DNA of 64,000 nucleotides, from positions 114,875-178,874 of the forward strand of contig VMGF01000001.1 in NCBI GenBank assembly GCA_007376445.1. Reading direction: 5' to 3'. The position numbers and the translations under genes were made by a program. The DNA is from Parcubacteria group bacterium Gr01-1014_3. GTDB lineage: Bacteria; Patescibacteriota; Minisyncoccia; UBA6257; WO2-44-18. The notes under the pieces are model-generated. The model was not told the DNA's origin, did not search any database, and saw only the letters and a program-made list of their open reading frames with translations. The number at the start of each line of letters is the position of its first letter. Positions within the stretch are counted from its first letter, which is position 1. Shown here one piece after another: positions 27,970-58,939 of the stretch.

Positions 27970-27971
27970 TT

Positions 27972-42739: not shown

Positions 42740-42769
42740 ATTTAAATGTTTAAAAATTTAAATATTTTT

Positions 42770-43498: not shown

Positions 43499-44184
43499 TG
43501 GGGTTTTTGTAAAACATAATAAATATACCGGCCAAACCACTGATTGGATGGCAGGATGTGTTTCAGGGGCTGAAGCCAATTGAACAGCCAGTGCTTGAGC
43601 TCGGATTTGCCATAACGGACTGCCAAGAGGCGGAAATATTTTAAGAAAGTCTTTTTAAAAATTGACCGGGTGAAAAATGTGATGTGATTATCTCCCTCTA
43701 AAAAATGATAAATATCGCCGTGGCGTAAAAAAAGTAGCCGATTCAGGATATGAAATGGATTTGGAGTAGAGATAATGAAAATTCCTCCAGGCTTCAGAAT
43801 CCTTGAAGCCTCCCGCCCGAAATGAAACGGATTCTCCAGGTGCTCGATAGTTTGCGAAGAGATTACGGCGTCCACGGAGTTATCGGCCCACGGAAACTTG
43901 TCGAAGCAGAAGTCTATTTTTTTAAACGGGAACTTTTGAGCCGCTTCATGCCGATAATCATCTATATCCGCTCCGGTTAGATTTTTGTACCCAGCTTCCG
44001 ATAATTGCGCCAAAAGTGATCCGTCGGCCGAAGCCGCGTCCACTATCACGCTACTTTTATTCGAAATGAATTCTTTAGTTAAATTCAAAATCCGCCCGCT
44101 TCGGATATCCCAGCTAGCGCGTTGCTGTAATTCAAAAAGCCGGTTTTTATTATTTTTTATTTCGTCGGGGTTAAGATATTCCAT
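43495..44184 (-). CDS. Class I SAM-dependent methyltransferase, tandem paralog 1 (229 aa)
   Basis: VIVDAASADGSLLAQL ... LKPGGIFIIST ... NHITFF; about 40% identical to 42770..43498. Confidence 0.7.
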   Translation of the reverse strand: MEYLNPDEIKNNKNRLFELQQRASWDIRSGRILNLTKEFISNKSSVIVDAASADGSLLAQLSEAGYKNLTGADIDDYRHEAAQKFPFKKIDFCFDKFPWADNSVDAVISSQTIEHLENPFHFGREASRILKPGGIFIISTPNPFHILNRLLFLRHGDIYHFLEGDNHITFFTRSIFKKTFLKYFRLLAVRYGKSELKHWLFNWLQPLKHILPSNQWFGRYIYYVLQKPQ

Positions 44185-45512
44185 AATAAATTACTTAGTC
44201 GTTCGCCTGATTTGCCGTCTAACTTGAAACAGGCGCCCTCAGCAACCCGTTTCCTGTATTCCCCGTCTTGCTCGGGGCGCTCTAAATAGGATTTTAACAA
44301 ATCCCGCATTTCTTCGGGGCTTTTGGCGATTGATAACTTGCCATTTTTAATCACTTCCCGCTGATGTTCATATTCGTAATATCGTACAAGGCTATCCCAA
44401 AACGGCTTTGCCTTCTCGCCGTCAAAGCCAATTAATACAGTTGGTTTGTCGAAGATCATCGAATCTAAAATAATACTCGAGGGGCTCGTCAAAACTACAG
44501 CGCTGTGATAAATCAGATTCGCTAAATGCTGGTCGTCACTCCTTCTCAGCATGGACTCTTCCAGCTTGACTACGTTTTGCGGGACATCAAAAACCATTCC
44601 CGCCGGCGGCTTAAACCCGCCGGTCTCAAGAACGCCAAAAAGCGGAAGACGAATTACGGTCTGCTCCTCTAGCTTGGCTAGCTCGTTAAACAAAAATTTA
44701 TTGAAAGATTTGTCACCAGTCCAGATATCGCTTGGCGGAGTAACAAAAATATATCTGCGGGCCGGATCAAGCCCAAGCCGAGTCATAAATTCCTTTCTAT
44801 CGCTACGCTGACCAACAAGATAATCATCGTAATGAGGAATTCCAACAACCCGCAATCTGTTCTTCGGAACGCCGTGATAATTAATGACCCAGGATTCGAT
44901 ATTGGTATTTTGAACTACCACGATATTCGGCAGGGTTCGCAATAGGCCTTTTGTCGTCATGCTGTCCCAAGAACGCCCCATACCAGCTGAATAAATCCCT
45001 CGTCGTCTTGCTTCTCGGACTAGATAAGAATCGCTAAATTCTTGCGCTCGTAAATCCTGTAAGTCCGTCGCGAAAATCAAATCCGGTCTATATTTTTCAA
45101 ACAAAGCATCAAATCCACCGCCCGGCGTAAAGCGGTAGTCTAAGAAGCGGACCGAATTTCTAACAAAGCCAAAACTGCCAGTCCAGGCGATTAATGAATT
45201 AAATATATATCGTAAATAATTATGATCTTTCCCTCGCTGGACTAATTTATGTATTTTTTTGCTGTATGTGCTTAACAAATTCCAAAACAATACGTGAAAC
45301 AGCAGATTAATTTTGGATAATGGACGAAACGGGATCGCTTCTATGATGATATTTGGCGCGCCGAATTCGCGCTGATAAAAATCCTTGTTTTTTTCTGGGA
45401 CTAATAAAATAATTCTAATACCTTCCTGCTGTTTCAAGAGATTAAAAAAGTTCGTCTCAAGCAAATTTCTAACCACTAGATTAAAAAAACAGGTTATAAA
45501 TATGGTTTTCAT
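44157..45512 (-). CDS. TagB/TagF-like CDP-alcohol phosphotransferase, paralog 3 (451 aa)
   Basis: N-terminus MKTIFITCFFNLVVRNLLETNFFNLLK parallels MQKTIFITILQGVEAKNILRTEVYRNLIK of paralog 1. C-terminus ACFKLDGKSGERLSN. Confidence 0.6.
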   Translation of the reverse strand: MKTIFITCFFNLVVRNLLETNFFNLLKQQEGIRIILLVPEKNKDFYQREFGAPNIIIEAIPFRPLSKINLLFHVLFWNLLSTYSKKIHKLVQRGKDHNYLRYIFNSLIAWTGSFGFVRNSVRFLDYRFTPGGGFDALFEKYRPDLIFATDLQDLRAQEFSDSYLVREARRRGIYSAGMGRSWDSMTTKGLLRTLPNIVVVQNTNIESWVINYHGVPKNRLRVVGIPHYDDYLVGQRSDRKEFMTRLGLDPARRYIFVTPPSDIWTGDKSFNKFLFNELAKLEEQTVIRLPLFGVLETGGFKPPAGMVFDVPQNVVKLEESMLRRSDDQHLANLIYHSAVVLTSPSSIILDSMIFDKPTVLIGFDGEKAKPFWDSLVRYYEYEHQREVIKNGKLSIAKSPEEMRDLLKSYLERPEQDGEYRKRVAEGACFKLDGKSGERLSNLLWNILTPTK

Positions 45513-46891
45513 TATGGTTTAGCGGGTACTTTACGCTTGAGTAAATCTTTCAAGCTGATCCAAAGCCGGACAAACAGATCTCTGTCATGTCGATCAAACC
45601 TAAACATCTGCCCAGTGCTAATCTTAAATTCTGGATGCAGCTTGCGCAATCGGCTATAGAAAAATATTGTTCGTTCAAGATAAATTGCCATATACACGCC
45701 GCCAGATCCTAAAATGCCGAATAACGGCAAAAAAATCGCGGAAGTGATCGGTATGACCAAGGCCTCATTCACCAGCCGCATTGTTAATACCCTATACTCA
45801 CGCAACATAGATAAAATAACTTTCAGAACCTTATAGAACGAATAAATCGGCAAACTAAGCATCAACAGTACAAAAAGCGTGACTGAGGAAGTATATTGCG
45901 GGAATAGCCAGGGAATGACAAAGGGCACAGTTACAAAACTGGCCGCCATTAATCCGAAGCTTAGCCAGGCCGTATACTTAACGCTCCGGTTAAAAATGTA
46001 AGCCATTTGATCCTTTAGTCCGATCTTGCTGAATAAAGAAATAGTGATGCCATTCATCGGAATTACGCTCTGAACAAATGCGGCTAGATTATTAGCGACG
46101 CTATAAAAAGCTACCGCCTCGGTATTGATGAAAAACTTAATGAACCAGGGCATCAGATTCTTGGTAACTCGCGAGATCGCATATCGAAAGAAGATAAGAC
46201 TGCCATGTTTTTTCAAAAAAGCCGGCAACATCATCTCTGTGCCAGCCGTAATTCCGGCAAAGGTTTTCTTATATTGTTTCATGAATATAAAAACGCCAAC
46301 CACCATCACCGCCCCCGCTTCCCCAGCAACGTGAGATATCAACACCGTAGTGATGTTAAAGTCGTTCATTAAAAAGAAAGAGGTTAAAAAAACCGCCTTG
46401 GTTAATTCTCGCCAAAGCGGAAATGACCAATGCGCGAAAGAGACTATAGATTTTAAGAAAACGCTCAATGACGATTCGACGGCATTTAGCAAAAGCAATC
46501 CACTGACTATTTTTATCAAATTGCCGACATCCTGACCGTAATAACCGGCTATTAAAGACGATCCTAGAAACACCCCAATCGCCAAAACCGACATGATGGC
46601 CGCCCGGCTAAAAGTTGATTCCCAGAACAAACGCTTTGCTTTTTGCGGCATCTTCTGAGCAAACCAATAACGCATTTCTACGGCTATTGGACCATCCATA
46701 TTTTTCCAATCGAAACCATCTAGTAAGTTCAAAAATGCCAGGATCAGCTGAAATACGCCGAAATTAAAAACACTTAAATACCGAATGGTGAAAAATGAAT
46801 TTACCAAACCTATAAGATTAGCGGAGTAATCAAAAACCCGCTTCGCCGATTCACCTTTGATAAAAATGTGGGAAAGTTTTGATTGTTCCAT
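45512..46891 (-). CDS. Polysaccharide/oligosaccharide flippase-like polytopic membrane protein (Wzx/MOP-type candidate), 459 aa
   Basis: About 12 predicted TM segments. N-terminus VFDYSANLIGLVNSFFTIRYLSVFNFGVFQLILAFLNLL resembles the Wzx N-terminus. Located inside the glycan locus. Confidence 0.5.
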   Translation of the reverse strand: MEQSKLSHIFIKGESAKRVFDYSANLIGLVNSFFTIRYLSVFNFGVFQLILAFLNLLDGFDWKNMDGPIAVEMRYWFAQKMPQKAKRLFWESTFSRAAIMSVLAIGVFLGSSLIAGYYGQDVGNLIKIVSGLLLLNAVESSLSVFLKSIVSFAHWSFPLWRELTKAVFLTSFFLMNDFNITTVLISHVAGEAGAVMVVGVFIFMKQYKKTFAGITAGTEMMLPAFLKKHGSLIFFRYAISRVTKNLMPWFIKFFINTEAVAFYSVANNLAAFVQSVIPMNGITISLFSKIGLKDQMAYIFNRSVKYTAWLSFGLMAASFVTVPFVIPWLFPQYTSSVTLFVLLMLSLPIYSFYKVLKVILSMLREYRVLTMRLVNEALVIPITSAIFLPLFGILGSGGVYMAIYLERTIFFYSRLRKLHPEFKISTGQMFRFDRHDRDLFVRLWISLKDLLKRKVPAKP

Positions 46892-46892
46892 A

Positions 46893-47981
46893 TTAAAGCA
46901 GCGTCACAATTCTTTCGACAAGCCGATTCAAGCTATGTTTTTCTTTAATAATATCGCGAAGCTTCATGCCGATTCTTCGTTTTTCCTCCGTTGGTAAAGC
47001 CACAAAGCCGTTTATTTTTTTCTGAAGATCTTCGGCCGCGCCCTCCTTAAACATTAGGAGGTTCTTAAGCTCCTGGTCAAAATATTCCTCAAAAGCCGGA
47101 TTGCTTACGAATACCGGCACACCACAGGACATTGATTCTAATGTGCTTTTATCAAAACTTCCGGCGACCGTAAGATTAACAAAAAAATCGTGATTCTGAT
47201 AAATCGAAACAGTTCTATTGTTAGCGACCCGGCCAACAAAGGTTACTCGTCCTCCAAGATCAAGTTCACGCGCCATTCTCTTTATATTTTCATAATACGC
47301 TCCCTCGATCGGCTTGCCGATCGTGGGTTCTCCGACAATAGTTAAGGTTGTATCAGGAATATTTTGAACGACGCTTTTTACGGCCAGCAATAAAGTTTCG
47401 ATATTCTTGACCGGGGTAATTCTACCTAAAAATAACACTTTATGGCCTGGAGTTTTAGGTAGTACCAGCGGAATGAAGTGGTCCGTATCAATTCCCTGCT
47501 GGAGAACGCGCAATTTCTTGCTGATCAGCGGATAGGCCAGCCGGGTTGAGGTCACGATAATGTTCGCAAAAAACGCGGCCAGGCGTAATTTAAGATTGGC
47601 CAAATAATGCGCGTACCATAGAATTATTTTCTTTCCTGTTAATCGCCACCACCACCCGGCCAAAATCACGTATTCGGGATTCATGTGGACAAATACTGTG
47701 TCGTAATCTTTTCTTAACAGCCAAATATATTTATAAAATCGCCAGGCATAAATAATTTTCAAAAACCACTTCCTAATTCCTAATTCTTGATTCTTAATTC
47801 TTAATGTCTCTTTGCCAAGCGAATAAACCCGTACATTGGCCGGCAATTCGGTGCGGCCTTGATATAAACAAATAGCATTCAGGATCTCGACCTTCTTGGC
47901 CAATTCTTCGATCCAGCGGTGATAGGCGCCAAGCGCATCGTCGTTCAAATCTACCTTTTGAGTAATAAAAAGAATTCTCAT
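46893..47981 (-). CDS. GT4 glycosyltransferase
   Basis: TLESMSCGVPVFVSNPAFEEYF C-terminal GT4 motif. Start trimmed to the ATG at 47981 (MRILFITQK), which avoids overlapping the epimerase gene. Confidence 0.75.
   Translation of the reverse strand: MRILFITQKVDLNDDALGAYHRWIEELAKKVEILNAICLYQGRTELPANVRVYSLGKETLRIKNQELGIRKWFLKIIYAWRFYKYIWLLRKDYDTVFVHMNPEYVILAGWWWRLTGKKIILWYAHYLANLKLRLAAFFANIIVTSTRLAYPLISKKLRVLQQGIDTDHFIPLVLPKTPGHKVLFLGRITPVKNIETLLLAVKSVVQNIPDTTLTIVGEPTIGKPIEGAYYENIKRMARELDLGGRVTFVGRVANNRTVSIYQNHDFFVNLTVAGSFDKSTLESMSCGVPVFVSNPAFEEYFDQELKNLLMFKEGAAEDLQKKINGFVALPTEEKRRIGMKLRDIIKEKHSLNRLVERIVTLL
47770..47804. repeat. Degenerate heptanucleotide tandem repeat (TTCYTRA)x5 inside the GT4 N-domain
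   Basis: Direct reading: ttcctaa ttcctaa ttcttga ttcttaa ttcttaa. It encodes RIKNQELGIRK on the coding strand. Confidence 0.6.
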
Positions 47982-48048
47982 GTGTCTATTGATTATAAAA
48001 CACGAAAAACCCTTAAAAAGATACGGGTTCTGGAAATAAAAAAGGAGC

Positions 48049-48933
48049 TTATAATAGCTCCTGGTAATGCTCCTTATACCACTCAATTGTCTTAGTCATA
48101 CCGTCTTCGAGAGAAGTGAACTTACATTCTTCGCCGAAGAATCTCTTCTGAGTCTCCACGTTTGCCTGGATAATCGCCTTATTGGTCTCGCCAGCGCGCA
48201 TTGGCTGGAAGTCAATCTTAGCATCCAGCATCTTAGCAAACAGATTGGCAACTTCGATTACCGGCACTCCCTGACCCGGCGCCGCGTCGATCACTTCGTC
48301 CGAATTCATCATCGTCTTGTCGCTTTCCAGCGCGCGAATGAGAATTTCGGCAGTATCACCGACGTACACGAGGTCCATCAACTGCGAACCGTCGCCGTAC
48401 ACCTTGAGGGGCTTGCCCTGAATGGCTCCGATAATCCAGTTCGGCGCGAATTTCTGAACCGGCTTATACTTCTGCCCTTCACCGTAGACGTTGAATCCAC
48501 GCACCACGTTTATTTTTGTGCCGAACGCGTTGTTGTAAACGAAAGCAAAATCCTTTGCCGTCCGCTTCGTAATCGCGTAAGGATTCATCCAAACATCCGG
48601 AAGCGTGATGTAAACACAGCGCTTCTGATACTTCCGAATCGCTTCAAAAACATTGATCGTTCCGCAAATATTCGCCTTCACCGTTTCCGAAATATGCTGA
48701 AGCGTTTCGGCTGTTCCAAGGATGCCGGCAAGATGAATCACACCGTCAACCGCGAACACCGCCTGATCAACTGCTTCCGCGTCGCAAATATCATTCGCGC
48801 GATATTCCACGCCAACGAATGGCTTGGAAAAATGCCTGTCAAGGCTGATAACTTGATAGCCGCGCTCAATCAACTTCCGAATTACATGGCCTCCGATGAA
48901 GCCCTGTCCGCCAGTTACGAGAACCTTACTCAT
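48049..48933 (-). CDS. NAD-dependent nucleotide-sugar epimerase/dehydratase (SDR), 294 aa
   Basis: MSKVLVTGGQGFIGGHVIRKLIERGYQV and YAITK (YxxxK). Confidence 0.8.
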   Translation of the reverse strand: MSKVLVTGGQGFIGGHVIRKLIERGYQVISLDRHFSKPFVGVEYRANDICDAEAVDQAVFAVDGVIHLAGILGTAETLQHISETVKANICGTINVFEAIRKYQKRCVYITLPDVWMNPYAITKRTAKDFAFVYNNAFGTKINVVRGFNVYGEGQKYKPVQKFAPNWIIGAIQGKPLKVYGDGSQLMDLVYVGDTAEILIRALESDKTMMNSDEVIDAAPGQGVPVIEVANLFAKMLDAKIDFQPMRAGETNKAIIQANVETQKRFFGEECKFTSLEDGMTKTIEWYKEHYQELL

Positions 48934-48994
48934 TCGTTTTCCTCCAAGAAAGCTTGCAACGTTCTGCGTACCATTTTACAGTTAAAATTACCCT

Positions 48995-49519
48995 ATGTCA
49001 ATTCAGCTAATCCCTCGCGATCCGCTTGAAAAGTCCGATGTTCTTGTTGTGCTGACCGGCAACGGCTTTGAACGTACCGATCATGCGGTTAAGCTCTTTA
49101 AGGCTGGCTGGGCGCCATTATTGCTGATGGTCGGTTCAACTGGTAGTCGCCCCCCAAAAGAAATGGCTGCCTACGCGGTTCAAAACGGCGTTCCGGAAAA
49201 TTGCATCCGGTTTGAAAGCCAATCTTCCAACACCCGTCAGAATGCCGACAATGTCCTGAAAATAGCCACCGACAACTCCTGGATGAGAATTATTTTAATA
49301 ACTTCACCCCATCATCAACTGCGCGCCCACTTATCTTTCCGGATGGCCAACCAAAAACTTGGAGGCCGGATTAAAATCATAAACCACCCGCCTGCTGAAT
49401 ATAGTTGGTTTGATCTCGTGGAAAGTTCCCGTGGAAAGGACAAAAAAGTTCTAAGATTTTTCTATATTTTTAGCGAACTATTTAGAATTCTTAAATATAG
49501 AATCAAGGGTGACCTCTAA
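48995..49519 (+). CDS. DUF218 (YdcF/SanA/ElyC-like) domain protein, 174 aa
   Basis: VLVVLTGNGFERTDHAVKLFKAGWAPLLLMVGSTG...ESQSSNTRQNA matches the DUF218 core. Confidence 0.55.
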   Translation: MSIQLIPRDPLEKSDVLVVLTGNGFERTDHAVKLFKAGWAPLLLMVGSTGSRPPKEMAAYAVQNGVPENCIRFESQSSNTRQNADNVLKIATDNSWMRIILITSPHHQLRAHLSFRMANQKLGGRIKIINHPPAEYSWFDLVESSRGKDKKVLRFFYIFSELFRILKYRIKGDL

Positions 49520-50641
49520 CGAAGCCTGGTAGTCCCGCAAATACTCCGCTTTGGTGCGGAAATGATCGGCGGTCGTGATTCCTTGGCTGCTGAATGCGTT
49601 ATGCTCTGTCGGATTCATGCCGATGAACTGATTTATCCTATCCGCCAAAGCCTTCCAATCTCCAACTGGCACCACGAACCCATTTTGGCCATTTATCACG
49701 AATTCATTAGCCGGCGCTACGTCAGTCATGATTACCGGTAAGCCATTTGCCATTGCCTCAATAGGAGATCTTGCGCCGCCTTCATAATTAGAAGTTAATA
49801 CGAACAAGTCAGCCGTTTTGTAATAAGAAATAATATCATTGGTCCAGGGCTCAAATATGACATTGTCGGCTAATCGATTTTTTTCAATAAGAGCTTTGAG
49901 TTTTTTTTCTTCCGGTCCGCCGCCAACAATTAATAACAAAGACCCGGGGTTTCTTTTCATGACTTCGGCCATCGCGCGTATTGCTAAGCCAATATTCTTC
50001 TCGGTGCTTAACCGAGAAGCTGCCAAAATAATAAAATCGTGATTGGAATATTTTTTGCGCAGATTAGTTTTAATAGGATAATGCTTGACCGAATCAAGAT
50101 CAAAGATAATTGGCAAAACAACAATCTTAGCGGCGGGAACATCTAAAATGTTTACCAATGAGCGCTTAACTCTTTCGCTAACAACGCGAATCCCGTCCGC
50201 TTTTTTGATAAGCCATTTTCCCAACAAAACTCTAGCTTTATTTTTAAATGACTCCTTCCAAAAATAGGGGCTGAGAAAATCGCTGTGACTCTGAATTTGG
50301 AAGGACAATCGAAATTTTATTTTTAAAAAATAACTCACCAGGGCAGTTTCAAACGGATCCTGAGAGCTTATGACCGCATTATCAACTAGAAACTGAGAGT
50401 TACGGATGATTTTCTTGCCAATCAAATAAGCGTCAATAAAATATAATGGTTTGAATTGAGTGTTGGTCGGATGCGCAAAAACATTTTTACTCAGCTCTTG
50501 ATCATGCATTCCCAATTTCTTATGGGTGTAAACGATTATATGTAGTTCATTAAACAATTTTCCATATTCAATCATCCTCTCCCATGTTGGAGAATTTTTT
50601 ATGAAGACATTCTGATCCGTTGAGAGCATTAAAATTTTCAT
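49478..50641 (-). CDS. GT4 glycosyltransferase, 387 aa
   Basis: EGGARSPIEAMANGLPVIMTDVAPANEFV GT4 motif. Confidence 0.8.
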   Translation of the reverse strand: MKILMLSTDQNVFIKNSPTWERMIEYGKLFNELHIIVYTHKKLGMHDQELSKNVFAHPTNTQFKPLYFIDAYLIGKKIIRNSQFLVDNAVISSQDPFETALVSYFLKIKFRLSFQIQSHSDFLSPYFWKESFKNKARVLLGKWLIKKADGIRVVSERVKRSLVNILDVPAAKIVVLPIIFDLDSVKHYPIKTNLRKKYSNHDFIILAASRLSTEKNIGLAIRAMAEVMKRNPGSLLLIVGGGPEEKKLKALIEKNRLADNVIFEPWTNDIISYYKTADLFVLTSNYEGGARSPIEAMANGLPVIMTDVAPANEFVINGQNGFVVPVGDWKALADRINQFIGMNPTEHNAFSSQGITTADHFRTKAEYLRDYQASLEVTLDSIFKNSK

Positions 50642-52863
50642 AGCGTTGATAGAAGTTGAGCTACTTGATTGATCGTATTTTCGATTGAGAATTGTTTAAC
50701 TTTTTCCTTGGCGTTTTTCGTAATCATCCCGCGAAATTCCGGATCACTATCAATCTTATGAATTGCCGCCAGAATCTCTTGTTTGTTATTCGGCTCAACC
50801 AAAATACCCTCTTTATTATTCTCCACGATTTCTGATAAATTGCCGATATTCGTGGTAATAACCGGCGCGCCAACATGCATCGCCTCAACTAACTGGAATG
50901 AGAAGCTTTCGAATGAAGTATTCAAAATAAAAATACCGGACTGCGCCAGTCGCCTTAACAACTCTTCCCTGGGAATCTGACCACTCAACAAAACCCTGCC
51001 TTGTAACTTTAAACTTTCAACTTTTAACTTAAGGGTTTCACTCTCGGGGCCATCGCCAATAATCTCAAGGCGCCAATCTGGTAATTCTTTCATGATTTCA
51101 ATTAGCACATCAAATCCTTTCCATGGCACCAGGCGACCGGCCGAGATAATAATCTTAGAGCGCTTAGCGCTTAGCGTGTTAGGATATAGGGGCTTTAAAT
51201 CAATTCCGTTATAAATTGCCCGGACTTTTTCCGGATGTTTGATCCAACCGCCAACCAGTTTCTGAAAATACTTGCTGGGTGTAATAACCGCATCGGCATT
51301 TCTTACGACAAACTTTTGAATCGCTCGCATCAATTCGACTCGCCAGCCATGTTTTTTGCTTTGAAATTCATCAATGCCGTCTTTTACGCCAAAACGCTGA
51401 ACGGACTGCTCCCAGACATAGTCACCCGGCACCCGAAGGACAAAGGGACGACCGAGAAGCTTCGCCGCTAAAAGCGCCGGCAGGCCAACGCTAATCGTAT
51501 CTTGGGCGAAAACAATATCCGCCTTCCTTGCCCTGCGAAGCGCCTTAAAAAAATACAACAAGTGCCTAACTCCCGGCGGCCAGCCACGCACGAGGCGGAA
51601 CGGTAAAACCGCTACCCCAAATCCTCGTTTCGGTAATTCTCGCTCCAGCAAAACGGCATAGGTGGCCGGCCCGCCGATTTCCGGCGGATAAATACCGGTA
51701 GCCAGAAGGACACGAATCATGAATCTAGAATCGTGAATCATGGAACGAAAAATTTTGTCCATCTTCTGAGAAATTAAATCCCATGAATAGTTGGCCAAAA
51801 TCAACTTTCGCCCATTTTCCGCAAGCCGCTCGCGGAGCTTCTGGTCATTTATCAGCTCGCTGATTTTTTTAGCCAGATCTTCCGAATCTTCTGAATTACA
51901 GATCAAGCCGGTTTCATTATGTTTCAAAAAATCTACGATACCCCCGACCGGTGTTCCAATAACCGGCAAGCCAGCCGCCATGGCTTCCAAGAAGGAGTTG
52001 CCCAATCCTTCCGAGCGTGATGCCCTGACAAAAATCTCCGCGAATCCTAAATATTGAGGAATCTTATCCGCAGAAACTTGCCCTAAGAAGCTCACTCGTG
52101 AGTTAACCCCCATATCATGGGCTAACTTTTCCAACGATGCTCGATCTGGTCCATCGCCTAAAATTTGTAAAGAATAATCTTGATTCTTCAGCCTTGCGAA
52201 TGCGCTAATTAAAATATCGACTCCATTCTTATGGACTAACCGTGAAGTAGTTATTATTATTTTATCGTTATTCTTGATTCTTGATTCTTGATTCTTGATT
52301 CTTGCCAGGTCGACTCCATTCGGCACTACCTCGATCGGGCAGATCGCCCCATGGCGGCGCGCGAAGTCGGCCAAATATCCGCTAATAGCTTGAATATAGT
52401 CCGCTTTTTTAAAGATCAATCTCCAGAGCGGATAAAATAAACCGACGCGGGATAGAATATGCCTCTCGCTATCACCCTCCTGAAGAGTAAGTAACATCGG
52501 TATTGATGGATGACGCAGTTTAAAGAAAAGAGCGGCCAACCCGCCATAAGATGCCATCATTGCCCAAATAGCCTCAAATTTATTCTTCTGATGTTCGCGC
52601 TCAGCCGCCCGCCAAGCGCGAAAAATGTAGGTCAGCTTTTCCCAAAAACGTCCATAGTAATCGGCCGTAGTTTTTGCCGAATTGCCGGTTCCTAGTCGAA
52701 CAACTTTAGTATTTTTTGTTTCGGAGGTAGCTGGCCAGGAATCGTCGAACTTGTGGGTAAAGATCGTAAAGTGATCGTTAGATTGGCTAACAATCTCCTT
52801 AAGCGCTATTTCGGCTCCTCCTGAAAATGGATCATAGGCCAGGCTAAAGACGGCAAGTTTCAT
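50638..52863 (-). CDS. Tandem GT4-GT4 fusion glycosyltransferase, 741 aa
   Basis: Two GT-B units. The first begins MKLAVFSLAYDPFSGGAEIAL and ends EGLGNSFLEAMAAGLPVIGTPVGG. The second begins IRVLLATGIYPPEIGGPATY and ends ESFSFQLVEAMHVGAPVITTNIGN. Confidence 0.8.
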   Translation of the reverse strand: MKLAVFSLAYDPFSGGAEIALKEIVSQSNDHFTIFTHKFDDSWPATSETKNTKVVRLGTGNSAKTTADYYGRFWEKLTYIFRAWRAAEREHQKNKFEAIWAMMASYGGLAALFFKLRHPSIPMLLTLQEGDSERHILSRVGLFYPLWRLIFKKADYIQAISGYLADFARRHGAICPIEVVPNGVDLARIKNQESRIKNNDKIIITTSRLVHKNGVDILISAFARLKNQDYSLQILGDGPDRASLEKLAHDMGVNSRVSFLGQVSADKIPQYLGFAEIFVRASRSEGLGNSFLEAMAAGLPVIGTPVGGIVDFLKHNETGLICNSEDSEDLAKKISELINDQKLRERLAENGRKLILANYSWDLISQKMDKIFRSMIHDSRFMIRVLLATGIYPPEIGGPATYAVLLERELPKRGFGVAVLPFRLVRGWPPGVRHLLYFFKALRRARKADIVFAQDTISVGLPALLAAKLLGRPFVLRVPGDYVWEQSVQRFGVKDGIDEFQSKKHGWRVELMRAIQKFVVRNADAVITPSKYFQKLVGGWIKHPEKVRAIYNGIDLKPLYPNTLSAKRSKIIISAGRLVPWKGFDVLIEIMKELPDWRLEIIGDGPESETLKLKVESLKLQGRVLLSGQIPREELLRRLAQSGIFILNTSFESFSFQLVEAMHVGAPVITTNIGNLSEIVENNKEGILVEPNNKQEILAAIHKIDSDPEFRGMITKNAKEKVKQFSIENTINQVAQLLSTL
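52280..52314. repeat. Perfect heptanucleotide tandem repeat (ATTCTTG)x5 inside the tandem GT4 gene
   Basis: Direct reading: attcttg x5 (35 nt), preceded by (TTA)x3. On the coding strand it encodes ARIKNQESRIKNN, in the interdomain linker just before the C-terminal Rossmann domain (IITTSRL). Confidence 0.85.
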
Positions 52864-52910
52864 ATGTTATAAAACCAGCATAACAAATCTATGGTTACAT
52901 TATTATACAA

Positions 52911-54068
52911 ATGAAGATCCTGTATCTGGTTACCAAAGACGACGTGGGTGGCGCTCAAAAGTATGTTTCCGATCTCGCTGATTATATGGCTAAGGCCGGC
53001 CATGAAGTTTCAATCATAGCCGGTGGCAAAGGTGGAGTCAGGTTTCTTTCTAATAGGTTAATGCCCTATATCTTGTTCGTTAATGATTGGCTAGCCATAG
53101 CCGAAATCGCTCTGTTATTTCTTAAGAAAAAGCCGGATGTAATCCATTTAAATAGCTCGAAGACCGGAATCGTTGGAACGTTCGGGGCTCTCCTTTATAA
53201 TTGTCTTAGAAAATTGACCGGGCAAAGCACTGCTAAAGTTATCTTCACGGCGCATGGCTGGGTCTTCAATCCAAGTAATCATCTTGGAACGTTGCGAAGG
53301 AAAATATATGTGCTTATTCACCGCCTGACTTCGCCGTTTCAAAATATGATAATCAGCGTGTCCGAATTTGATCGAGCCCTAGCAATAGAAAATAAAATCG
53401 CTCAAGAAAATAAGCTGGTAACCATTCATAACGGCCTAGACTATAATAAACTAACCTTTCTCGACCGGTCGGGGGCAAGAAAGACGCTGGTACGCCTGGC
53501 ATCTTTACCACAGGAAATTTTACAGAATAACGACACCTGGGTCGGTTCTATTGGCCGGTTGGTTCTAGAAAAAAACTATCTGGACTTCGTCGAAGCCGCG
53601 GCCTTAGTGAAAAACTCCCAGGTCCGTTATTTCATAATCGGAAGCGGCGAGGATTTTAATAAATTAACGAACCGCATCATTAAACTTGGGTTGCAAAATA
53701 AGTTTTTTCTAATTCCCCAGCTCTCGCCTGCCGCCAACTTCTTGAAGGCTTTCGATATTTTTTTGCTGTCCTCGATCAAGGAAGGATTTCCATATAGCCT
53801 CCTCGAAGCAATGAGCGCCGAACTGCCGGTAATTGCCACACGAGTAGGCGGCATACCTGAAATGCTGGCTACAAACAATAAAGAAACCTGCGGCCTGGTA
53901 ATGCCGCCCAAGGAGCCGGCCGAATTAGCTAGAGCTATAAGCTATCTTATAGACAATAAAGAGATTGCAGTCGACATGGGTAAAAAAGCCGCTCTCAAAG
54001 CAAGGGGTGAGCTAAATATAGCCCAAATGGGGTCTAAAACACTTCGGGTTTATTCAGAAAGTCGTTGA
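52911..54068 (+). CDS. GT4 glycosyltransferase, 385 aa
   Basis: EGFPYSLLEAMSAELPVIATRVGGIPEML GT4 motif. Confidence 0.8.
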   Translation: MKILYLVTKDDVGGAQKYVSDLADYMAKAGHEVSIIAGGKGGVRFLSNRLMPYILFVNDWLAIAEIALLFLKKKPDVIHLNSSKTGIVGTFGALLYNCLRKLTGQSTAKVIFTAHGWVFNPSNHLGTLRRKIYVLIHRLTSPFQNMIISVSEFDRALAIENKIAQENKLVTIHNGLDYNKLTFLDRSGARKTLVRLASLPQEILQNNDTWVGSIGRLVLEKNYLDFVEAAALVKNSQVRYFIIGSGEDFNKLTNRIIKLGLQNKFFLIPQLSPAANFLKAFDIFLLSSIKEGFPYSLLEAMSAELPVIATRVGGIPEMLATNNKETCGLVMPPKEPAELARAISYLIDNKEIAVDMGKKAALKARGELNIAQMGSKTLRVYSESR

Positions 54069-54754
54069 ATCTCTACCATCAAGGACGAATCGTTGGGATT
54101 TAATTCCAAGGCCTTTTTATAAAACTCTATCGCCTTATCCTTGAAACCGAAATCTTTGTAATAATTCGCAATCGAATTTAGACCACCATAGGCATTCTGG
54201 CTGTCTATACTGATGGCCGTAAGAAAATTCGATTCGGCTTTCTGTGGTTCCTTCAAATAATACCCATAAAGGTTGGCCAGGTTTAAGTAGGTCAATGGCT
54301 GATTCGGGGCCACTATTTTTGCGTATTCCCAGGCATCGCGAGCGCCAATAAAATTATTAAAAAACTTTTTAAAATTACCCAGCGCCATCCAGCTATTAAA
54401 ATCATTTGAATCCTCAGATAGGGATGCGGACAAATGGGTCAACTGCACTCTTTTGATCGCAATCGCGCTAGCTGGCAACTGTGAAATCATCGGATCATCG
54501 CCAATCATGTTAATAATCTGGCCAGTATACTTTGGTAATTTAACTATCGGCTTGTCCTGAGCTTGTCGAACGGGATGTTCGCTGTTAGTTGTTATTTTTG
54601 GGTTACCAGTAGTCGAAGCAGTGACGGCCACCTCTGAAGCTTTCTCCTTCTCGGCCGCCAACTCTATCTTATGGCCAGAAAACCAAAAATAAAAGCCTGA
54701 TATGCCGACAAGGGCCACCCATATTAAAAATCCTATTCCCAGTACTTTTTTCAT
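54050..54754 (-). CDS. Membrane-anchored TPR-repeat protein, 234 aa
   Basis: N-terminal TM helix (VLGIGFLIWVALVGISGFYFWF). C-terminal TPR-like repeats (AISIDSQNAYGGLNSIANYYKDFGFKDKAIEFYKKALELNPND). Confidence 0.6.
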   Translation of the reverse strand: MKKVLGIGFLIWVALVGISGFYFWFSGHKIELAAEKEKASEVAVTASTTGNPKITTNSEHPVRQAQDKPIVKLPKYTGQIINMIGDDPMISQLPASAIAIKRVQLTHLSASLSEDSNDFNSWMALGNFKKFFNNFIGARDAWEYAKIVAPNQPLTYLNLANLYGYYLKEPQKAESNFLTAISIDSQNAYGGLNSIANYYKDFGFKDKAIEFYKKALELNPNDSSLMVEIQRLSE

Positions 54755-54777: not shown

Positions 54778-54813
54778 TTTAAAAACAATACACCCCGCTT
54801 GCGCGGGGTGTAT
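54778..54813 (-). terminator. Rho-independent terminator after the giant surface protein gene
   Basis: atacaccccgc-ttgc-gcggggtgtat hairpin followed on the minus strand by TGTTTTT. Confidence 0.65.
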
Positions 54814-54846
54814 TGCCTCTATACTAACAGGTCTCTCAAGAACCTA

Positions 54847-57800
54847 TTAGAAAGTGAGAACTTCAGCTGAGGTCGAAACGGACGGAACGCCAGGCAGTAA
54901 GAATCCAGTGAACCAGTCATCGGATGCAATACCTTGCGTGGAGTTTGTCGCGTTGTCGGACCAGATAAAGTTGTCGTCATCACCCGCTACGATGGTAGCT
55001 TCAGTGGTAGCCGTGAAGGTACCAGCTGACACCGCGTCAATTAAGGCAGCGGTAGCAGTGAACCGACCAGCTTGAGCCTGACCAACGTTAGGTGATGGAG
55101 AGTAGTCGCAAGCGGAAACAACGTTTTCGCTCGCAGCCACGTCGCAATGAACCGCGTTCCAGCCCGCATCACCAAGAATCTTGGTCGAGATGTTTGGGGT
55201 GCTAGAAGCGCCGGTTACATCAGCTTTCAATTCAAACCAGCGAGTTTCGCCAGCTGAAATACGGATGGCCTCAGCAGTCGCGCCGCTAGAAGCGGTCGGA
55301 TTGAAGAGAACCGCAACATCAACATCTGGATCGGCGTTGGAAACGACGTCCTCGAAATCAACGTTGGTACCATCGGCAATTGCCAAACCGAATTGGTTCA
55401 ACAAACCGCTGGAATTACCGCAAGAACCTTGGCTGAATCCAGCATCGGAGTAGCAGTAGAGCCTCAAGTTCGTAACTCGGAACACACCGGCGTCCTCAGT
55501 TTCGTAATTGGTGACAGCGGTGGTCGAGGTAGAAACATTGAAGGTCATCTTATACAGGCTTACACCATTGGTACCGGCCGGAGCGTCTATCTTAAAGCGA
55601 TAGAGAGTCTGGTCAGAGGTATTGGTGAACTTGCCGGAAGTCGCGAGCTTGGAAAGGGTCGGCATCGCCTTGACGATCCTAGCGCCGTTGGAAGCCGTAT
55701 CGACTCCAGCAGTGTAGACAGTCGTACCGGACGAAATACCAATCGCTTTACCACCCTGCGCGCCCTCATTCGCGTCATCGTCTGGAGCATCACCCCAAGC
55801 GGCGTTGTAGTCAACATTGATTAAGTGACCAGGAACGGCCTGAGACAAAGTCGTATTCATCGGAGAAATATCGGCCTTGATGGTCAATAACTTCTGGCCA
55901 TCCTTCGGAATAACGAAGTTAGACAAAGTGGCAGTCGCGTAATCACCGGTAAAGGTTACTTCACCGACTTTCGTCGCGCCATCCCACAGAGTGACTTTCG
56001 TCAAATCAGACGGAGAGTTGGAAGCATTGGCCTGATCATTAGCGGCAGACGTAGTAGCTAACTGAAGACCCAACAGATCAAGGCGAACATCTTCATAAGA
56101 AGCGTTGAACCTCAATACAGACAAGGTCTGATCAGTCGCGCCAGCCTGAATCAACTTCAATGACGGACTCGAAGAATCAAGAGCAAGGGTCAGAGTACCA
56201 CCGGTCTGGGCAACGATCGTGCGGCCGAGGTCAGTGGTAACAGTCTCTGCAACTGAAGTACCGGAGGTAACACCGGTTACAACAGCTTGGTTAGCCGCGG
56301 TCGTAAGACCACCAGCTCCCCAACCTACATACTCTACGGTTCCACCAGCAGTCAGGTTACAAACCAAGGCCAACGTCTTAGCGGTCCCTTTAGGAACTAC
56401 CAAGCTGGTGTCGAAGGTGAAGGTTTTATCCACACCCGCGGCATCATCGTTAGACGGATTGACGATGTTCGTACCAGTATTCAAGGCAGTAGCGCCATCT
56501 TTCAGCTGACAGTTGGTTAACTCATCAGCAGTGTTCGCTGGGTATGAAGTGGTCAGATCAAGCTGCATCGAAGTGATGCGGAGATCTTCGCCAGACTCGC
56601 TGGCATCCAAAATATACTTGGCAAACTGATAAGCACCAGTACCCTTTACAACGTTCTGGTTCGGACTGGAAGAAGCGGTGTCGGTTGAAATAGTTAACAC
56701 CAACGCTCCAGTCTTAATGGTCATTGTGCTCAACGTAACCGTACCGCCAGAAGGAGTAATGGTCTGAGAAGAATTAGTTCCCTTGACCGTAGTCCAATCG
56801 GAAGACGGAGTCGTAGAAGCGGCAAACTGGTCATTCTGGGCAAAATCAGTGCCAATCTTACCTTTTAAGGTGTAAGTGTGGCGACCAACTTTAAAGGTAA
56901 CGGTATCGGAGAAGCGGAAGGCATTATTGCCACCAACTTGACCATCAACCGGACCAGCTACAACCTTACCATTTTCATCAACCAACGTTACGTTGGTCAA
57001 ATCATTGGAATCGATCGTACCACCAGTACCAGCAGCTTCAATCGTAGACGCGTCGAAGTTCATAGCGGCAACCGTCACGTCTTCACCCTTTACATCGGCA
57101 ACGAAACCACCGAGTACCTGGTCAGCCAAGTTCTCCGCGATATTCTGAGAGCCGACGGAAGTGGCTTTCTCAACGGACAAGCTACCTGCGCCAATTGTTA
57201 CTTCATAAGCATCATAGTTCGGCTGGGTGTTTTGCAACGTACCATCATCATCCGTGGATGAATCCGCAGAATCAGTGGCAGTCGGCAAGACATCATAACC
57301 ATAGGTCATACCAGTCGCCTTAATATCGGCATAGCGATACAAGTCGAAGTCAACGCCACGGTTAGAACCGCTTAATACATCGCCTTTGATGTAAACCTCC
57401 TTATTAAGACCCTTGGCAATAGTAATACCAGTGCCAAAGATAGCGGTGTAATACTTACCATCCGTACTAACGGTGGTGTCATACATAACGCCATCCAAAT
57501 AAGTCTTAAGGTTACCCAAATCAGAAGCAGCCGCGGAACCACCTTGATTCCAACGAATGGATTTAACCAAGATGTCTTCGTTAGCGCCAGCGGTAAGCTT
57601 CAAGCCAGCAAAGATGTAGCCAGCGGTGCCAATTTCCTTAGTTGCAGCGGTACCTGGATCCAAAGCACCACGCTCCAAGGTCATGCTACCAATGGTAAGC
57701 GTGCTGTTTACGGTCATATAGTTACCGACTAACGGGAAACCAGCGTTAACATTCGCTGAACCTGCATCGACGCCAACCAAGCTTAAGCTGACTAACTGAC

Positions 57801-58611
57801 CATTGTAATCATTCTGATCAGCATCGGAATCACCGGATAAGGTGATCGTCCTGGACTGACCGGCTTTAACTACGAATTTGTCGGTTAATTTCAACTTGTG
57901 GTCGGAACCGAAAGTCTTAGTATCACCCATTCGGATACCGTTTTCATCCAAGCCAACAACACCGCTGAAAGCGGCGTCATTACCTTGGCCAGTCCTCTCA
58001 ACGGACAACGAGGCTACGGTGATATCACCATCGGAAGACGCCGTTAACACCAACTTGGTGAATGGGCGGCTAGCGAAGGATTCGCCAAAAAGACCCGAAG
58101 CGGGTTGATCAGATGCTAAGGAAACGGACAAGCCTGAGCCACCTACTACTGGGCCAGGAGCCGGGGATGGGGTCGGTGATGGGGCTGCTCCAACAGAAGC
58201 AACCTTAGCACGCGTTATTGGACCAAAATAACCAACGGCCGGAGAGATGCCCACAGAAGCCTGATAGGCAGCCAACGCGGCTTTAGTTAATGATCCAAAG
58301 TATTCTGTAGCAGACGCGATCTTCAAATGACCCTTGCTGATCAAGAAGTTCTGCAAAGCCGTTACGTCAGCACCCCTGCTACCCACAGTGAGGTTGCGAG
58401 TATAGTTGTATGACGGAGCGGAAGAAGAACTGCCAGACGCAAGTTGCGCTTGAAGAGCAGCAATCTGAGCTAACAGAGCATTAATCTGAGCCTGTAAATC
58501 GGTCGATTGCGCAAAGGCAACCGGAGCCAATAACGAGGACCCAGTAAGCCACACAACAGTGGTTGCGGAAAGCAATACTGAAGTGAGTTTCTTTGTTATT
58601 GAATTACTCAT
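54847..58611 (-). CDS. Giant secreted/surface protein (1254 aa): signal peptide, Ala/Gln coiled segment, putative peptidoglycan-binding domain, then Thr/Ser/Gly-rich tandem beta-sandwich-like modules
   Basis: N-terminus MSNSITKKLTSVLLSATTVVWLTGSSLLAPVAFAQ (signal peptide); LQAQINALLAQIAALQAQL; GSRGADVTALQNFLISKGHL...YFGSLTKAALAAYQ (PG_binding_1-like). Then about 1000 aa of T/S/G/A/V/D/N-rich sequence with recurring roughly 100-aa modules such as ...VTLVDENGKVVAGPV...FKVGRHTYTLKGKI.... Confidence 0.7.
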   Translation of the reverse strand: MSNSITKKLTSVLLSATTVVWLTGSSLLAPVAFAQSTDLQAQINALLAQIAALQAQLASGSSSSAPSYNYTRNLTVGSRGADVTALQNFLISKGHLKIASATEYFGSLTKAALAAYQASVGISPAVGYFGPITRAKVASVGAAPSPTPSPAPGPVVGGSGLSVSLASDQPASGLFGESFASRPFTKLVLTASSDGDITVASLSVERTGQGNDAAFSGVVGLDENGIRMGDTKTFGSDHKLKLTDKFVVKAGQSRTITLSGDSDADQNDYNGQLVSLSLVGVDAGSANVNAGFPLVGNYMTVNSTLTIGSMTLERGALDPGTAATKEIGTAGYIFAGLKLTAGANEDILVKSIRWNQGGSAAASDLGNLKTYLDGVMYDTTVSTDGKYYTAIFGTGITIAKGLNKEVYIKGDVLSGSNRGVDFDLYRYADIKATGMTYGYDVLPTATDSADSSTDDDGTLQNTQPNYDAYEVTIGAGSLSVEKATSVGSQNIAENLADQVLGGFVADVKGEDVTVAAMNFDASTIEAAGTGGTIDSNDLTNVTLVDENGKVVAGPVDGQVGGNNAFRFSDTVTFKVGRHTYTLKGKIGTDFAQNDQFAASTTPSSDWTTVKGTNSSQTITPSGGTVTLSTMTIKTGALVLTISTDTASSSPNQNVVKGTGAYQFAKYILDASESGEDLRITSMQLDLTTSYPANTADELTNCQLKDGATALNTGTNIVNPSNDDAAGVDKTFTFDTSLVVPKGTAKTLALVCNLTAGGTVEYVGWGAGGLTTAANQAVVTGVTSGTSVAETVTTDLGRTIVAQTGGTLTLALDSSSPSLKLIQAGATDQTLSVLRFNASYEDVRLDLLGLQLATTSAANDQANASNSPSDLTKVTLWDGATKVGEVTFTGDYATATLSNFVIPKDGQKLLTIKADISPMNTTLSQAVPGHLINVDYNAAWGDAPDDDANEGAQGGKAIGISSGTTVYTAGVDTASNGARIVKAMPTLSKLATSGKFTNTSDQTLYRFKIDAPAGTNGVSLYKMTFNVSTSTTAVTNYETEDAGVFRVTNLRLYCYSDAGFSQGSCGNSSGLLNQFGLAIADGTNVDFEDVVSNADPDVDVAVLFNPTASSGATAEAIRISAGETRWFELKADVTGASSTPNISTKILGDAGWNAVHCDVAASENVVSACDYSPSPNVGQAQAGRFTATAALIDAVSAGTFTATTEATIVAGDDDNFIWSDNATNSTQGIASDDWFTGFLLPGVPSVSTSAEVLTF

Positions 58612-58746
58612 AATTGTTACTTTTTATTTACTTATTTACGTTAATTTATAATTTGCTTTTTTTCACAAAAATTGTCTCCCATCATTCCCAACCGCTCATG
58701 CGATAGAGACTCGACCACGATAGAAAACCATTCCTGGTATCGTATG

Positions 58747-58775
58747 AAGATAGTGTCTAATACCGAAAATGTCAA
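58747..58775 (-). promoter_or_regulatory. Candidate sigma70-type promoter for the giant surface protein gene (-35 TTGACA, 17-nt spacer, -10 TATCTT), implying a leader of about 130 nt
   Basis: Minus strand reads TTGACAttttcggtattagacacTATCTT. The 328-bp intergenic region has no ORF and no obvious Shine-Dalgarno before the ATG at 58611. Confidence 0.3.
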
Positions 58776-58939
58776 CGAGGAACAAAAAAGGCCTTTTGTG
58801 GAGGCCGGTAAACAAACAGATCGTTTTTAAAGCTTAATCCCCTCGTGAGGAGGGGGAAGTCGCTTAAAACGAAGATCCAGCCTCACACTGAACCTTTAGT
58901 ATTCAATTTTTGGTATCAGATAGGATAACGAGGCAGAGG

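Follow-up and report, generated by a model that had tools for sequence, protein, structure and literature searches.

Among described surface-layer (S-layer) glycoproteins, SgsE of Geobacillus stearothermophilus and SpaA of Paenibacillus alvei are encoded next to slg gene clusters, and archaeal examples such as the csg product of Haloferax volcanii are built of about six tandem Ig-like domains. The gene studied here occupies positions 54847–58611, minus strand, of a 64,000-nucleotide stretch (hereafter the window) of contig VMGF01000001.1 from Parcubacteria group bacterium Gr01-1014_3. Like SgsE and SpaA, its product is an acidic protein in the ~100–130 kDa range with predicted Sec export and a predicted non-covalent wall module at the N-terminus; the gene lies beside genes for cytoplasmic glycosyltransferases and a flippase, and has a monocistronic look, a strong terminator and a long leader. 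With the csg product it shares a small, fixed number of diverged beta-sandwich domains, an acidic and Thr/Ser-rich composition and the expectation of glycosylation. However, SgsE and SpaA carry SLH domains that bind a pyruvylated wall polymer, whereas the window protein has a coiled coil and a PG_binding_1 domain and no SLH; the bodies are not similar in sequence, and no WsaB or O-antigen-ligase-type transferase could be identified in the window. The csg product and the SLH-anchored glycoproteins are the closest functional likeness, but the window protein differs from them in anchor and sequence, and a lattice is known only for them.

Tentatively, and at slightly less than an even chance, we propose that the product of this gene is the chief structural protein anchored to the wall in the envelope of Parcubacteria (class Paceibacteria), of S-layer or sheath type, probably O-glycosylated, with its N-terminus at the wall and a variable C-terminal sandwich outside.

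The open reading frame (ORF) lies exactly where an earlier note, made by a model from the letters of this DNA, had put it, and its coding nature is secure, with more than 670 homologs scored in a word-indexed search. The mature protein has a computed mass of ~125 kDa and a pI of 4.37. Ser and Thr together make up 21.8% of the 1254 residues. The six cysteines form three pairs and no LPxTG-like motif was found in the protein, in agreement with the earlier statement that it has no Cys-rich or LPxTG features. No paralog was found within the window. The effective codon number (Nc) of 47.2 is the lowest among the 29 window ORFs, a modest signal given 48.0 for the next gene. In Pfam at E <= 1 the protein matched PG_binding_1 and, weakly, FlxA only (SLH and CWB2 were not found), and NCBIfam returned no family match. 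Because ~90% of its length is without a Pfam or NCBIfam model, the whole protein belongs to no described family.

Public names on two family members (P0001 and P0033) are 'SpoIID/LytB protein' and 'DNA topoisomerase IV subunit A', and P0001, which comes from the metagenome-assembled genome of Gr01-1014_3 and is 100% identical to the window protein, is the one called 'SpoIID/LytB'. A cell-wall hydrolase or sporulation-type enzyme would be in keeping with these names, which come from one source only, and with the common presence of PG_binding_1 alongside wall hydrolases. However, neither Pfam nor NCBIfam gave a match of the 1254-residue protein to SpoIID, amidase, transglycosylase, peptidase or topoisomerase models. 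When PDB sequences were searched with the family profile, matches were confined to the PG_binding_1 domain, and the other ~1100 residues were modelled as beta-sandwiches, with no enzyme fold found in the model or its structural matches. We therefore regard the enzyme explanation as effectively refuted. The public names, which have no backing from domain or fold searches, are likely annotation errors and should not spread further.

The N-terminal region, as read from the sequence, comprises a KK n-region, a long hydrophobic stretch and AFA-Q at residues 32–35, and so looks like the signal peptide that the earlier note had called. Its hydrophobic part is unusually well conserved across the family, as judged from the consensus of homolog N-termini. 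We do not claim a YSIRK-type signal peptide, for which there was no Pfam match at E <= 1. The Ala/Gln coiled segment of the same note was found at residues 37–58, with heptad spacing of the a/d positions L39, I43, L46, I50, L53 and L57; the weak FlxA match falls here, together with a match to a designed coiled coil, and the L/Q/I columns are nearly invariant in the family.

What the note had called a PG_binding_1-like domain (PF01471) scored 32 bits against a gathering cut-off of 23 (E 1.4e-7, residues 79–135) and was modelled as a three-helix bundle, superposable on solved PG_binding_1 domains. At the domain level, the sequence match and the model make the window protein a true member of PG_binding_1, and peptidoglycan binding is predicted. 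Domain membership and the three-helix fold are shared with wall enzymes such as SleB, phage endolysins, the Streptomyces DD-peptidase and L,D-transpeptidases; here, in contrast, the domain is preceded by a coiled coil and joined to a non-enzymatic beta array of 1100 residues. The linker that follows is poorly ordered in the model (pLDDT, predicted local distance difference test, < 50 at model residues 88–100) and its conservation, 0.34, is the lowest in the N-terminal half. Pro/Ser/Thr linkers are commonly O-glycosylated. With a predicted signal peptide, a PG_binding_1 domain and no LPxTG, the protein has the combination of predicted secretion and a non-covalent wall-anchoring module that characterizes the S-layer class.

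The body of ~1100 residues is all-beta in the predicted structure, at a mean pLDDT of 86.4. Since 741 of the 1200 modelled residues reached a pLDDT of 90 or more, the label 'low-complexity' given to it earlier is wrong. The recurring blocks described with that label are real at the profile level and invisible to BLASTP: a self-BLASTP of the 1254-residue protein found no internal repeats, whereas a self-hhalign of the family alignment gave E values of 1e-25 to 1e-12 at offsets of ~160, 330 and 500 residues. When the profiles of modules M1–M5 were compared pairwise, probabilities were mostly 83–98%, with M1–M3 at 51% and M2–M3 at 14%; M6 is only weakly related to the others. The Cys pair of M4 is invariant in the family (C647/C697 in the trimmed numbering). 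M6 and the 105-residue tail, modelled separately, formed a single compact domain (pTM, predicted template modelling score, 0.86), which holds a conserved motif, DFIWSxNSTTT...DWxNGYxVPGLP, and two Cys pairs; nowhere else in the protein is conservation as low.

Structure prediction, which the earlier note had named as the check that could overturn its reading, thus gave tandem beta-sandwiches and not globular enzyme domains. The secreted, peptidoglycan-binding, modular all-beta surface protein of that note is supported as a prediction, with no catalytic domain.

Relatives are present in at least 495 species-representative genomes (one genome per species was scanned). Among the matches listed they bear the names Harrison-, Sung-, Yanofsky-, Giovannoni-, Kaiser-, Niyogi- and Taylorbacteria, Paceibacter and Minisyncoccia, a set equivalent to the class Paceibacteria/Parcubacteria. 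An exhaustive search of 1.84 billion representatives with a single-sequence query returned 570 clusters (50% identity) at E <= 1e-30. The 74 complete orthologs span only 1139–1297 residues, meaning that the six-module plan is fixed, and each of the six modules retains its own conserved identity across the family. The gene behaves as a core, not an accessory, gene of Paceibacteria. Identity to the window protein drops from the anchor side to the tip (M1 0.59, M2 0.58, M6 0.42, tail 0.26), a gradient consistent with burial of the N-terminus at the wall and surface exposure of the C-terminus.

Five family members (P0137, P0139, P0159, P0186 and P0188) align only from the first beta module on and have 190–440 extra N-terminal residues. 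Judging from these sequences, lineages with the module array on a different anchor may exist.

The main rival explanation is a fibrillar adhesin for episymbiotic attachment, in which the wall-anchored stalk would present the variable C-terminal sandwich to a host-surface ligand. The stalk of tandem beta-sandwich domains seen by hhalign and in the model is what such an adhesin has, and so is a distinct, least-conserved distal domain. However, typical adhesin stalks are made of expanding, near-identical repeats, whereas module number and length are fixed here over hundreds of species and the modules diverged anciently, leaving no repeats visible to self-BLAST. There is one gene per locus, in a conserved core neighbourhood, and domain and structure searches recognised no known adhesive or ligand-binding head domain in the 1254 residues. 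Gram-positive fibrillar adhesins with Ig-like stalks (PrgB, the antigen I/II protein SpaP, Cna-B-type pilins) showed identities of 6–14% and differ in having an LPxTG/sortase signal, near-identical repeats and an adhesive head, and in a module number that is not fixed. Paceibacteria are host-attached, and secreted peptidoglycan-binding proteins are highly expressed in archaeal-parasitic Paceibacteria, where they have been proposed to serve attachment (PMC10936435). The one such highly expressed peptidoglycan-binding-domain protein of that study that could be traced (PMX_810_sub_00350; 2079 nt, 692 residues) is, however, not a full-length member of the family. All told, we consider an adhesin less probable than the S-layer-type reading, but clearly more so than a scaffold (see below).

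The gene stands in a conserved order: ClpB, a protein with seven transmembrane (TM) segments, a helix-turn-helix (HTH) protein, the structural gene, a tetratricopeptide-repeat (TPR) protein and a cluster of GT4 glycosyltransferases. Ortholog loci were classed as close (>= 46% identity) or distant (< 46%), and GT4 genes were counted within 10 kb. GT4 genes lay downstream of the gene in 17/17 close and 21/36 distant loci (38/53 in total) and upstream in none of 58. The TPR protein lay on the downstream side in 15/17 close loci and 19/36 distant ones (34/53 in total), again with 0/58 upstream. Conversely, ClpB was upstream in 20/20 close and 14/38 distant loci and downstream in 0/53. The GT4/TPR linkage is thus strictly directional, and it holds down to ~40% identity. 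Hence the claim that the gene abuts a glycosylation locus stood, since the TPR protein and GT4 genes adjoin it and the GT4 linkage is conserved.

The same claim had counted four GT-C/YfhO-type transferases as adjacent, and this part failed: those proteins lie 14–39 kb away and matched no Pfam or NCBIfam family, and the true neighbours are cytoplasmic GT4 (GT-B) enzymes. As for the proposal that the protein is a substrate for O-glycosylation, the conserved linkage to glycan genes speaks for it. The high Ser/Thr content, in contrast, is typical of beta-rich surface proteins and no signal by itself, and only 88 of the 260 Ser/Thr positions are kept as Ser or Thr in the family.

The latter count, with most positions not kept, would suit a different explanation of the cluster, which contests the glycosylation step alone: the surface protein would be real but unglycosylated, and the GT4, Glyphos_transf and flippase genes would make a secondary wall polymer. 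Genes of the CDP-glycerol glycerophosphotransferase family and Polysacc_synt genes, as found in the cluster, are typical of wall polymers, and no match to PMT (protein-O-mannosyltransferase), Wzy_C, YfhO or oligosaccharyltransferase was found among the window ORFs. However, PMT/PMT_2-family genes directly adjoin the structural gene in 7 of the 36 distant loci, where the same TPR protein also occurs; the linkage is directional and kept to ~40% identity; and the linker is of the commonly O-glycosylated kind. The PMT genes beside distant orthologs therefore favour protein glycosylation, while Glyphos_transf and the flippase favour a polymer. An unglycosylated protein is, in our estimate, a serious possibility that falls short of probable.

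A parallel for the glycosylation step is offered by the eukaryotic TMTC proteins, in which a PMT_2 domain is combined with TPR repeats and which modify the beta-sandwich domains of cadherins; actinobacterial Pmt also O-mannosylates. The distant loci likewise have PMT/PMT_2 and TM-TPR genes flanking a secreted tandem beta-sandwich protein (secretion being predicted), but TPR and transferase are separate proteins, and no PMT gene was found in the window.

In 13 of the 36 distant loci, the gene is followed by one for a small one-module protein with the same PG_binding_1 and coiled-coil anchor, placed between PMT genes in two of them (L004 and L005). This protein may be a minor envelope component. 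Its sharing of the anchor, and the separate conserved identity of each of the six modules, would also be compatible with a scaffold on the wall that, like a cohesin-type scaffoldin, serves as a docking site for pili or further secreted proteins and neither makes a layer nor binds hosts on its own. However, dockerin-like partners were not identified and the conserved glycosylation linkage would be left unexplained, which makes a scaffold quite improbable.

Returning to the S-layer or sheath type, the reading draws on general traits common among S-layer proteins (a mass of 125 kDa, a pI of 4.37, a low Cys count and the lack of a covalent sorting signal), on the fixed architecture combined with core-gene behaviour and expression signals, and on its fit to the literature. 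Several points weigh against it. Sequence conservation among S-layer proteins is usually poor, whereas members of this family retain 40–70% identity, and no solved S-layer protein was among the top structural matches of the model. PG_binding_1 is no established S-layer anchor, and the SLH and CWB2 modules did not turn up in Pfam at E <= 1. A tandem-sandwich stalk that ends in a variable tip is just as much the plan of a fibrillar adhesin. With Glyphos_transf and a flippase, the cluster may build a teichoic-acid-like wall polymer and not a protein glycan; PMT is absent from the window; and the codon-bias signal is modest.

In the mechanism that we envisage, Sec would export the protein, and cleavage after AFA would remove its signal peptide. 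The short coiled coil would join two or three chains, the three-helix PG_binding_1 bundle would hold the N-terminus to peptidoglycan non-covalently, and the Pro-rich linker would span the wall, so that the six rigid beta-sandwich modules point outward. The wall-proximal modules would be the most constrained, by packing or by lattice contacts, with the variable C-terminal sandwich at the surface. The TM-TPR protein, the GT4 enzymes, the flippase and, in some lineages, the PMT family would add O-glycans to the protein or make the surrounding wall glycopolymer. Expression, presumably at high abundance, would be set by a structured, dedicated leader and a very strong terminator. What the analysis shows is the domain layout, the class of fold, the lack of enzyme domains, the breadth and constant length of the family, its synteny and the conserved RNA structures; export, oligomerisation, binding to peptidoglycan, orientation, glycosylation, abundance and a lattice are inferred.

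Candidate phyla radiation (CPR) bacteria, or Patescibacteria, account for much of bacterial diversity, and knowledge of their S-layers comes from images alone. Cryo-electron microscopy has revealed S-layers on CPR and Parcubacteria cells without an outer membrane, with no gene assigned (10.1101/2020.05.14.094862; 10.1101/2022.04.20.488981; PMC5220378), and the molecular make-up of the CPR envelope has been described as unclear (PMC5220378). A single, near-universal 125-kDa protein with a predicted wall anchor and conserved glycosylation partners is a concrete S-layer candidate, usable for metaproteome searches, subtomogram fitting, antibodies for sorting or imaging uncultured cells, and phage or host-contact tests. 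Periodicities of 3.8 and 10 nm have been reported for Paceibacteria envelopes. The further proposition, that this family is the very S-layer or sheath protein seen on ultra-small CPR cells, with a new type of anchor and body, its own glycosylation machinery and an undescribed set of RNA controls, strikes us as possible but rather doubtful.

Irrespective of the protein's exact role, its gene looks monocistronic from the sequence; its leader is long and its terminator very strong. The length of 328 bp that the earlier note gave for the non-coding leader is exact, and the strong terminator that it had listed is there as well (Table 1); equivalent, very strong terminators follow the gene in 18/18 orthologs checked. 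The promoter that it had proposed, TTGACA-17-TATCTT, is the best sigma-70-like site between 54000 and 60000 and plausible here, but is not conserved in ortholog leaders. By the standards of this genome, a leader of at least 128 nt is exceptional. A -10-like box was present within 30 nt of the start codon in 14 of 26 genes, as against 11% of random windows, and a Shine-Dalgarno-like sequence in 2 of 26, which suggests that leaderless or very short-leader mRNAs are widespread.

Within the leader, element B consists of a long helix (P1) that encloses a 5' bulge, GGUCGR, and a hairpin (P2). GGTCGR occurred in 61 of 81 ortholog leaders, against 0.15 expected, and single-sequence folding recovered the architecture in 35 leaders. 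In a structure-blind MAFFT alignment analysed by RNAalifold, 8/8 pairs had compensatory changes, and 85% of cells were paired, compared with 65% in shuffles (0/500 as good) and 48–60% in slid controls. A covariance model of the element had one match in the 64-kb window (51 bits, E 1.6e-10); in 1.5 Mb of loci, 21 of its 22 matches lay just upstream of the orthologous gene on the same strand, the exception being marginal. The frequent G-U pairs indicate that the structure is specific to the sense strand. P1 was also considered as a DNA operator and rejected: about one quarter of the paired cells are G-U, each of which becomes an A-C mismatch on the opposite strand, and the helix covaries without being conserved in sequence.

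Farther upstream, the hairpin H1 has a heptaloop represented by GWGAGGC in 31 of 81 leaders (background 0.04), and CCTCAC, complementary to the H1 loop, occurs downstream of H1 in 15 of 29 leaders, against 3.5% expected. A hairpin with a T-run separates H1 from element B in all 26 leaders that have both. This leader-internal terminator could end an upstream gene or a small RNA, or could be an attenuator. Boxes resembling -10 elements precede H1 in 46% of leaders (11% in controls), so that transcription may begin before H1 and pass the internal terminator, which would then act as an attenuator; alternatively, the segment from H1 through the internal terminator would be a separate small RNA.

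At the other end, CTTG[ATC]G was found within 70 nt of the stop codon in 56 of 77 ortholog loci (background 0.043), the family heptaloop of the 3' hairpin being CUUGWGR. The loops of H1 (UGUGAGG) and of the 3' hairpin (CUUGAGA) share UGAG and bracket the gene, and both hairpins may be sites for one RNA-binding factor. Together, the conserved GGUCGR bulge and the UGAG-heptaloop hairpins suggest recognition by a specific factor.

Stabilizing stem-loops in the 5' untranslated region (UTR) are known from the Lactobacillus slpA and E. coli ompA mRNAs. Shared with those are a long leader, a surface structural gene and a stable helix near the point where the mRNA probably begins. Element B differs in its sequence-conserved GGUCGR bulge and the flanking UGAG-heptaloop hairpins, and belongs to no Rfam family. 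In Rfam, the leader and 3' region gave no family, with a sub-threshold Chlorobi-1 match only (19.9 bits against a cut-off of 50), on the terminator hairpin; the literature searched held nothing relevant on a Parcubacteria RNA motif. As far as Rfam and that literature show, the flanking RNA elements are undescribed. As lineage-specific cis-regulatory RNAs, the leader and 3' motifs are a rarity among CPR genomes, and they may be the sign of a system that controls envelope genes post-transcriptionally.

Table 1. Features of the gene, its product, its flanking RNA elements and its neighbourhood. Positions refer to the window, except where a locus handle (L003, L004, L005) is given; aa, amino acids; MFE, minimum free energy.
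Feature	Position	Strand	Basis or remark
ORF, whole	54847..58611	(-)	1254 aa, ATG start
Signal-peptide-like N-terminus, residues 1-34	58510..58611	(-)	read from sequence; cleavage likely between AFA and Q
Ala/Gln/Leu coiled coil, residues 37-58	58438..58503	(-)	heptad spacing, about three heptads
PG_binding_1 domain, residues 79-135	58207..58377	(-)	Pfam PF01471; three-helix bundle
Pro/Ser/Thr/Ala-rich flexible linker, residues 140-157	58141..58194	(-)	sequence AAPSPTPSPAPGP
Beta-sandwich module M1, residues 158-305	57697..58140	(-)	hhalign, model
Beta-sandwich module M2, residues 306-469	57205..57696	(-)	hhalign (M2-M4 98% probability, E 2.5e-13), model
Beta-sandwich module M3, residues 470-635	56707..57204	(-)	hhalign, model; holds the LTNVTLVDENGKVV...TYTLKGKI block
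Beta-sandwich module M4, residues 636-803	56203..56706	(-)	hhalign; Cys pair C701/C751
Beta-sandwich module M5, residues 804-974	55690..56202	(-)	hhalign (M4-M5 98.3% probability, E 1.3e-14), model
Distal C-terminal domain, M6 + tail, residues 975-1254	54850..55689	(-)	one compact beta-sandwich in model
Intergenic leader	58612-58939	(-)	328 bp; upstream ORF ends at 58940
Leader hairpin H1	58872..58896	(-)	9-bp stem, heptaloop UGUGAGG
Terminator-like hairpin + U-run inside leader	58784..58806	(-)	between H1 and element B
Sigma-70-like promoter candidate TTGACA-17-TATCTT	58747..58775	(-)	10/12 positions matched
Leader element B	58665..58735	(-)	54-124 nt upstream of AUG
3'-UTR hairpin	54824..54850	(-)	10-bp stem, heptaloop CUUGAGA; overlaps stop codon
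Intrinsic terminator	54780..54821	(-)	19-bp GC-rich stem + U-run; MFE -35.6 kcal/mol, z -7.75, 0/200 shuffles as good
ClpB	60410-63019	(-)	upstream
7-TM protein	59716-60480	(-)	upstream partner
219-aa protein with C-terminal DeoR-like HTH	58940-59599	(-)	upstream partner
234-aa protein, one N-terminal TM segment + TPR repeats	54050..54754	(-)	downstream partner
Glycan-synthesis cluster adjoining gene	41630..54068	(.)	linkage conserved
Single GT4 gene	52911-54068	(+)
Double GT4 gene	50638-52863
Single GT4 gene	49478-50641
Single GT4 gene	46893-48086
Polysacc_synt-type flippase	45512-46891
Glyphos_transf	44157-45512
Single GT4 gene	41630-42739
Polytopic membrane protein	39330-40781	(+)	6-12 TM-like segments (range for the four)
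Polytopic membrane protein	29667-31706	(-)	as above
Polytopic membrane protein	25831-28005	(-)	as above
Polytopic membrane protein	15419-17266	(-)	as above
Small anchor-sharing protein, 306-449 aa	L003 14909-16258; L004 15469-16389; L005 15677-16615		PG_binding_1 + coiled coil, Pro/Thr/Ser linker, one beta module

The window is, from ~700 to 54000, mostly one large glycan or wall-polymer island. It contains several GT4 genes, two Glyphos_transf, a Polysacc_synt flippase, S-adenosylmethionine (SAM) methyltransferases and a C-methyltransferase with a zinc-binding domain, and also a B12/radical-SAM enzyme, a nucleotidyltransferase-domain protein and an AMP-binding enzyme. Also inside it are the four polytopic membrane proteins, which fall into two pairs of paralogs, 36% and 50% identical. 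The four had no Pfam match at E <= 0.01 (the best was PMT_2, at E 6.5) and no NCBIfam match; those at 15419-17266 and 25831-28005 had no phmmer match to PDB sequences, and BLAST comparison of all four with the PMT genes of L004 and L005 showed negligible similarity. A GT-C, YfhO or PMT class could not be assigned, with no usable signal in Pfam at E <= 10, in NCBIfam, by BLAST or, for the two proteins so searched, by phmmer. The four are candidates for polymerase, ligase or GT-C-like enzymes.

On the other side of the gene, the ORF of the 7-TM protein shares 71 nt with the 3' end of clpB, as it does in two ortholog loci (L001 and L004). The start listed for this ORF may be too far upstream, or the overlap may reflect translational coupling with clpB.

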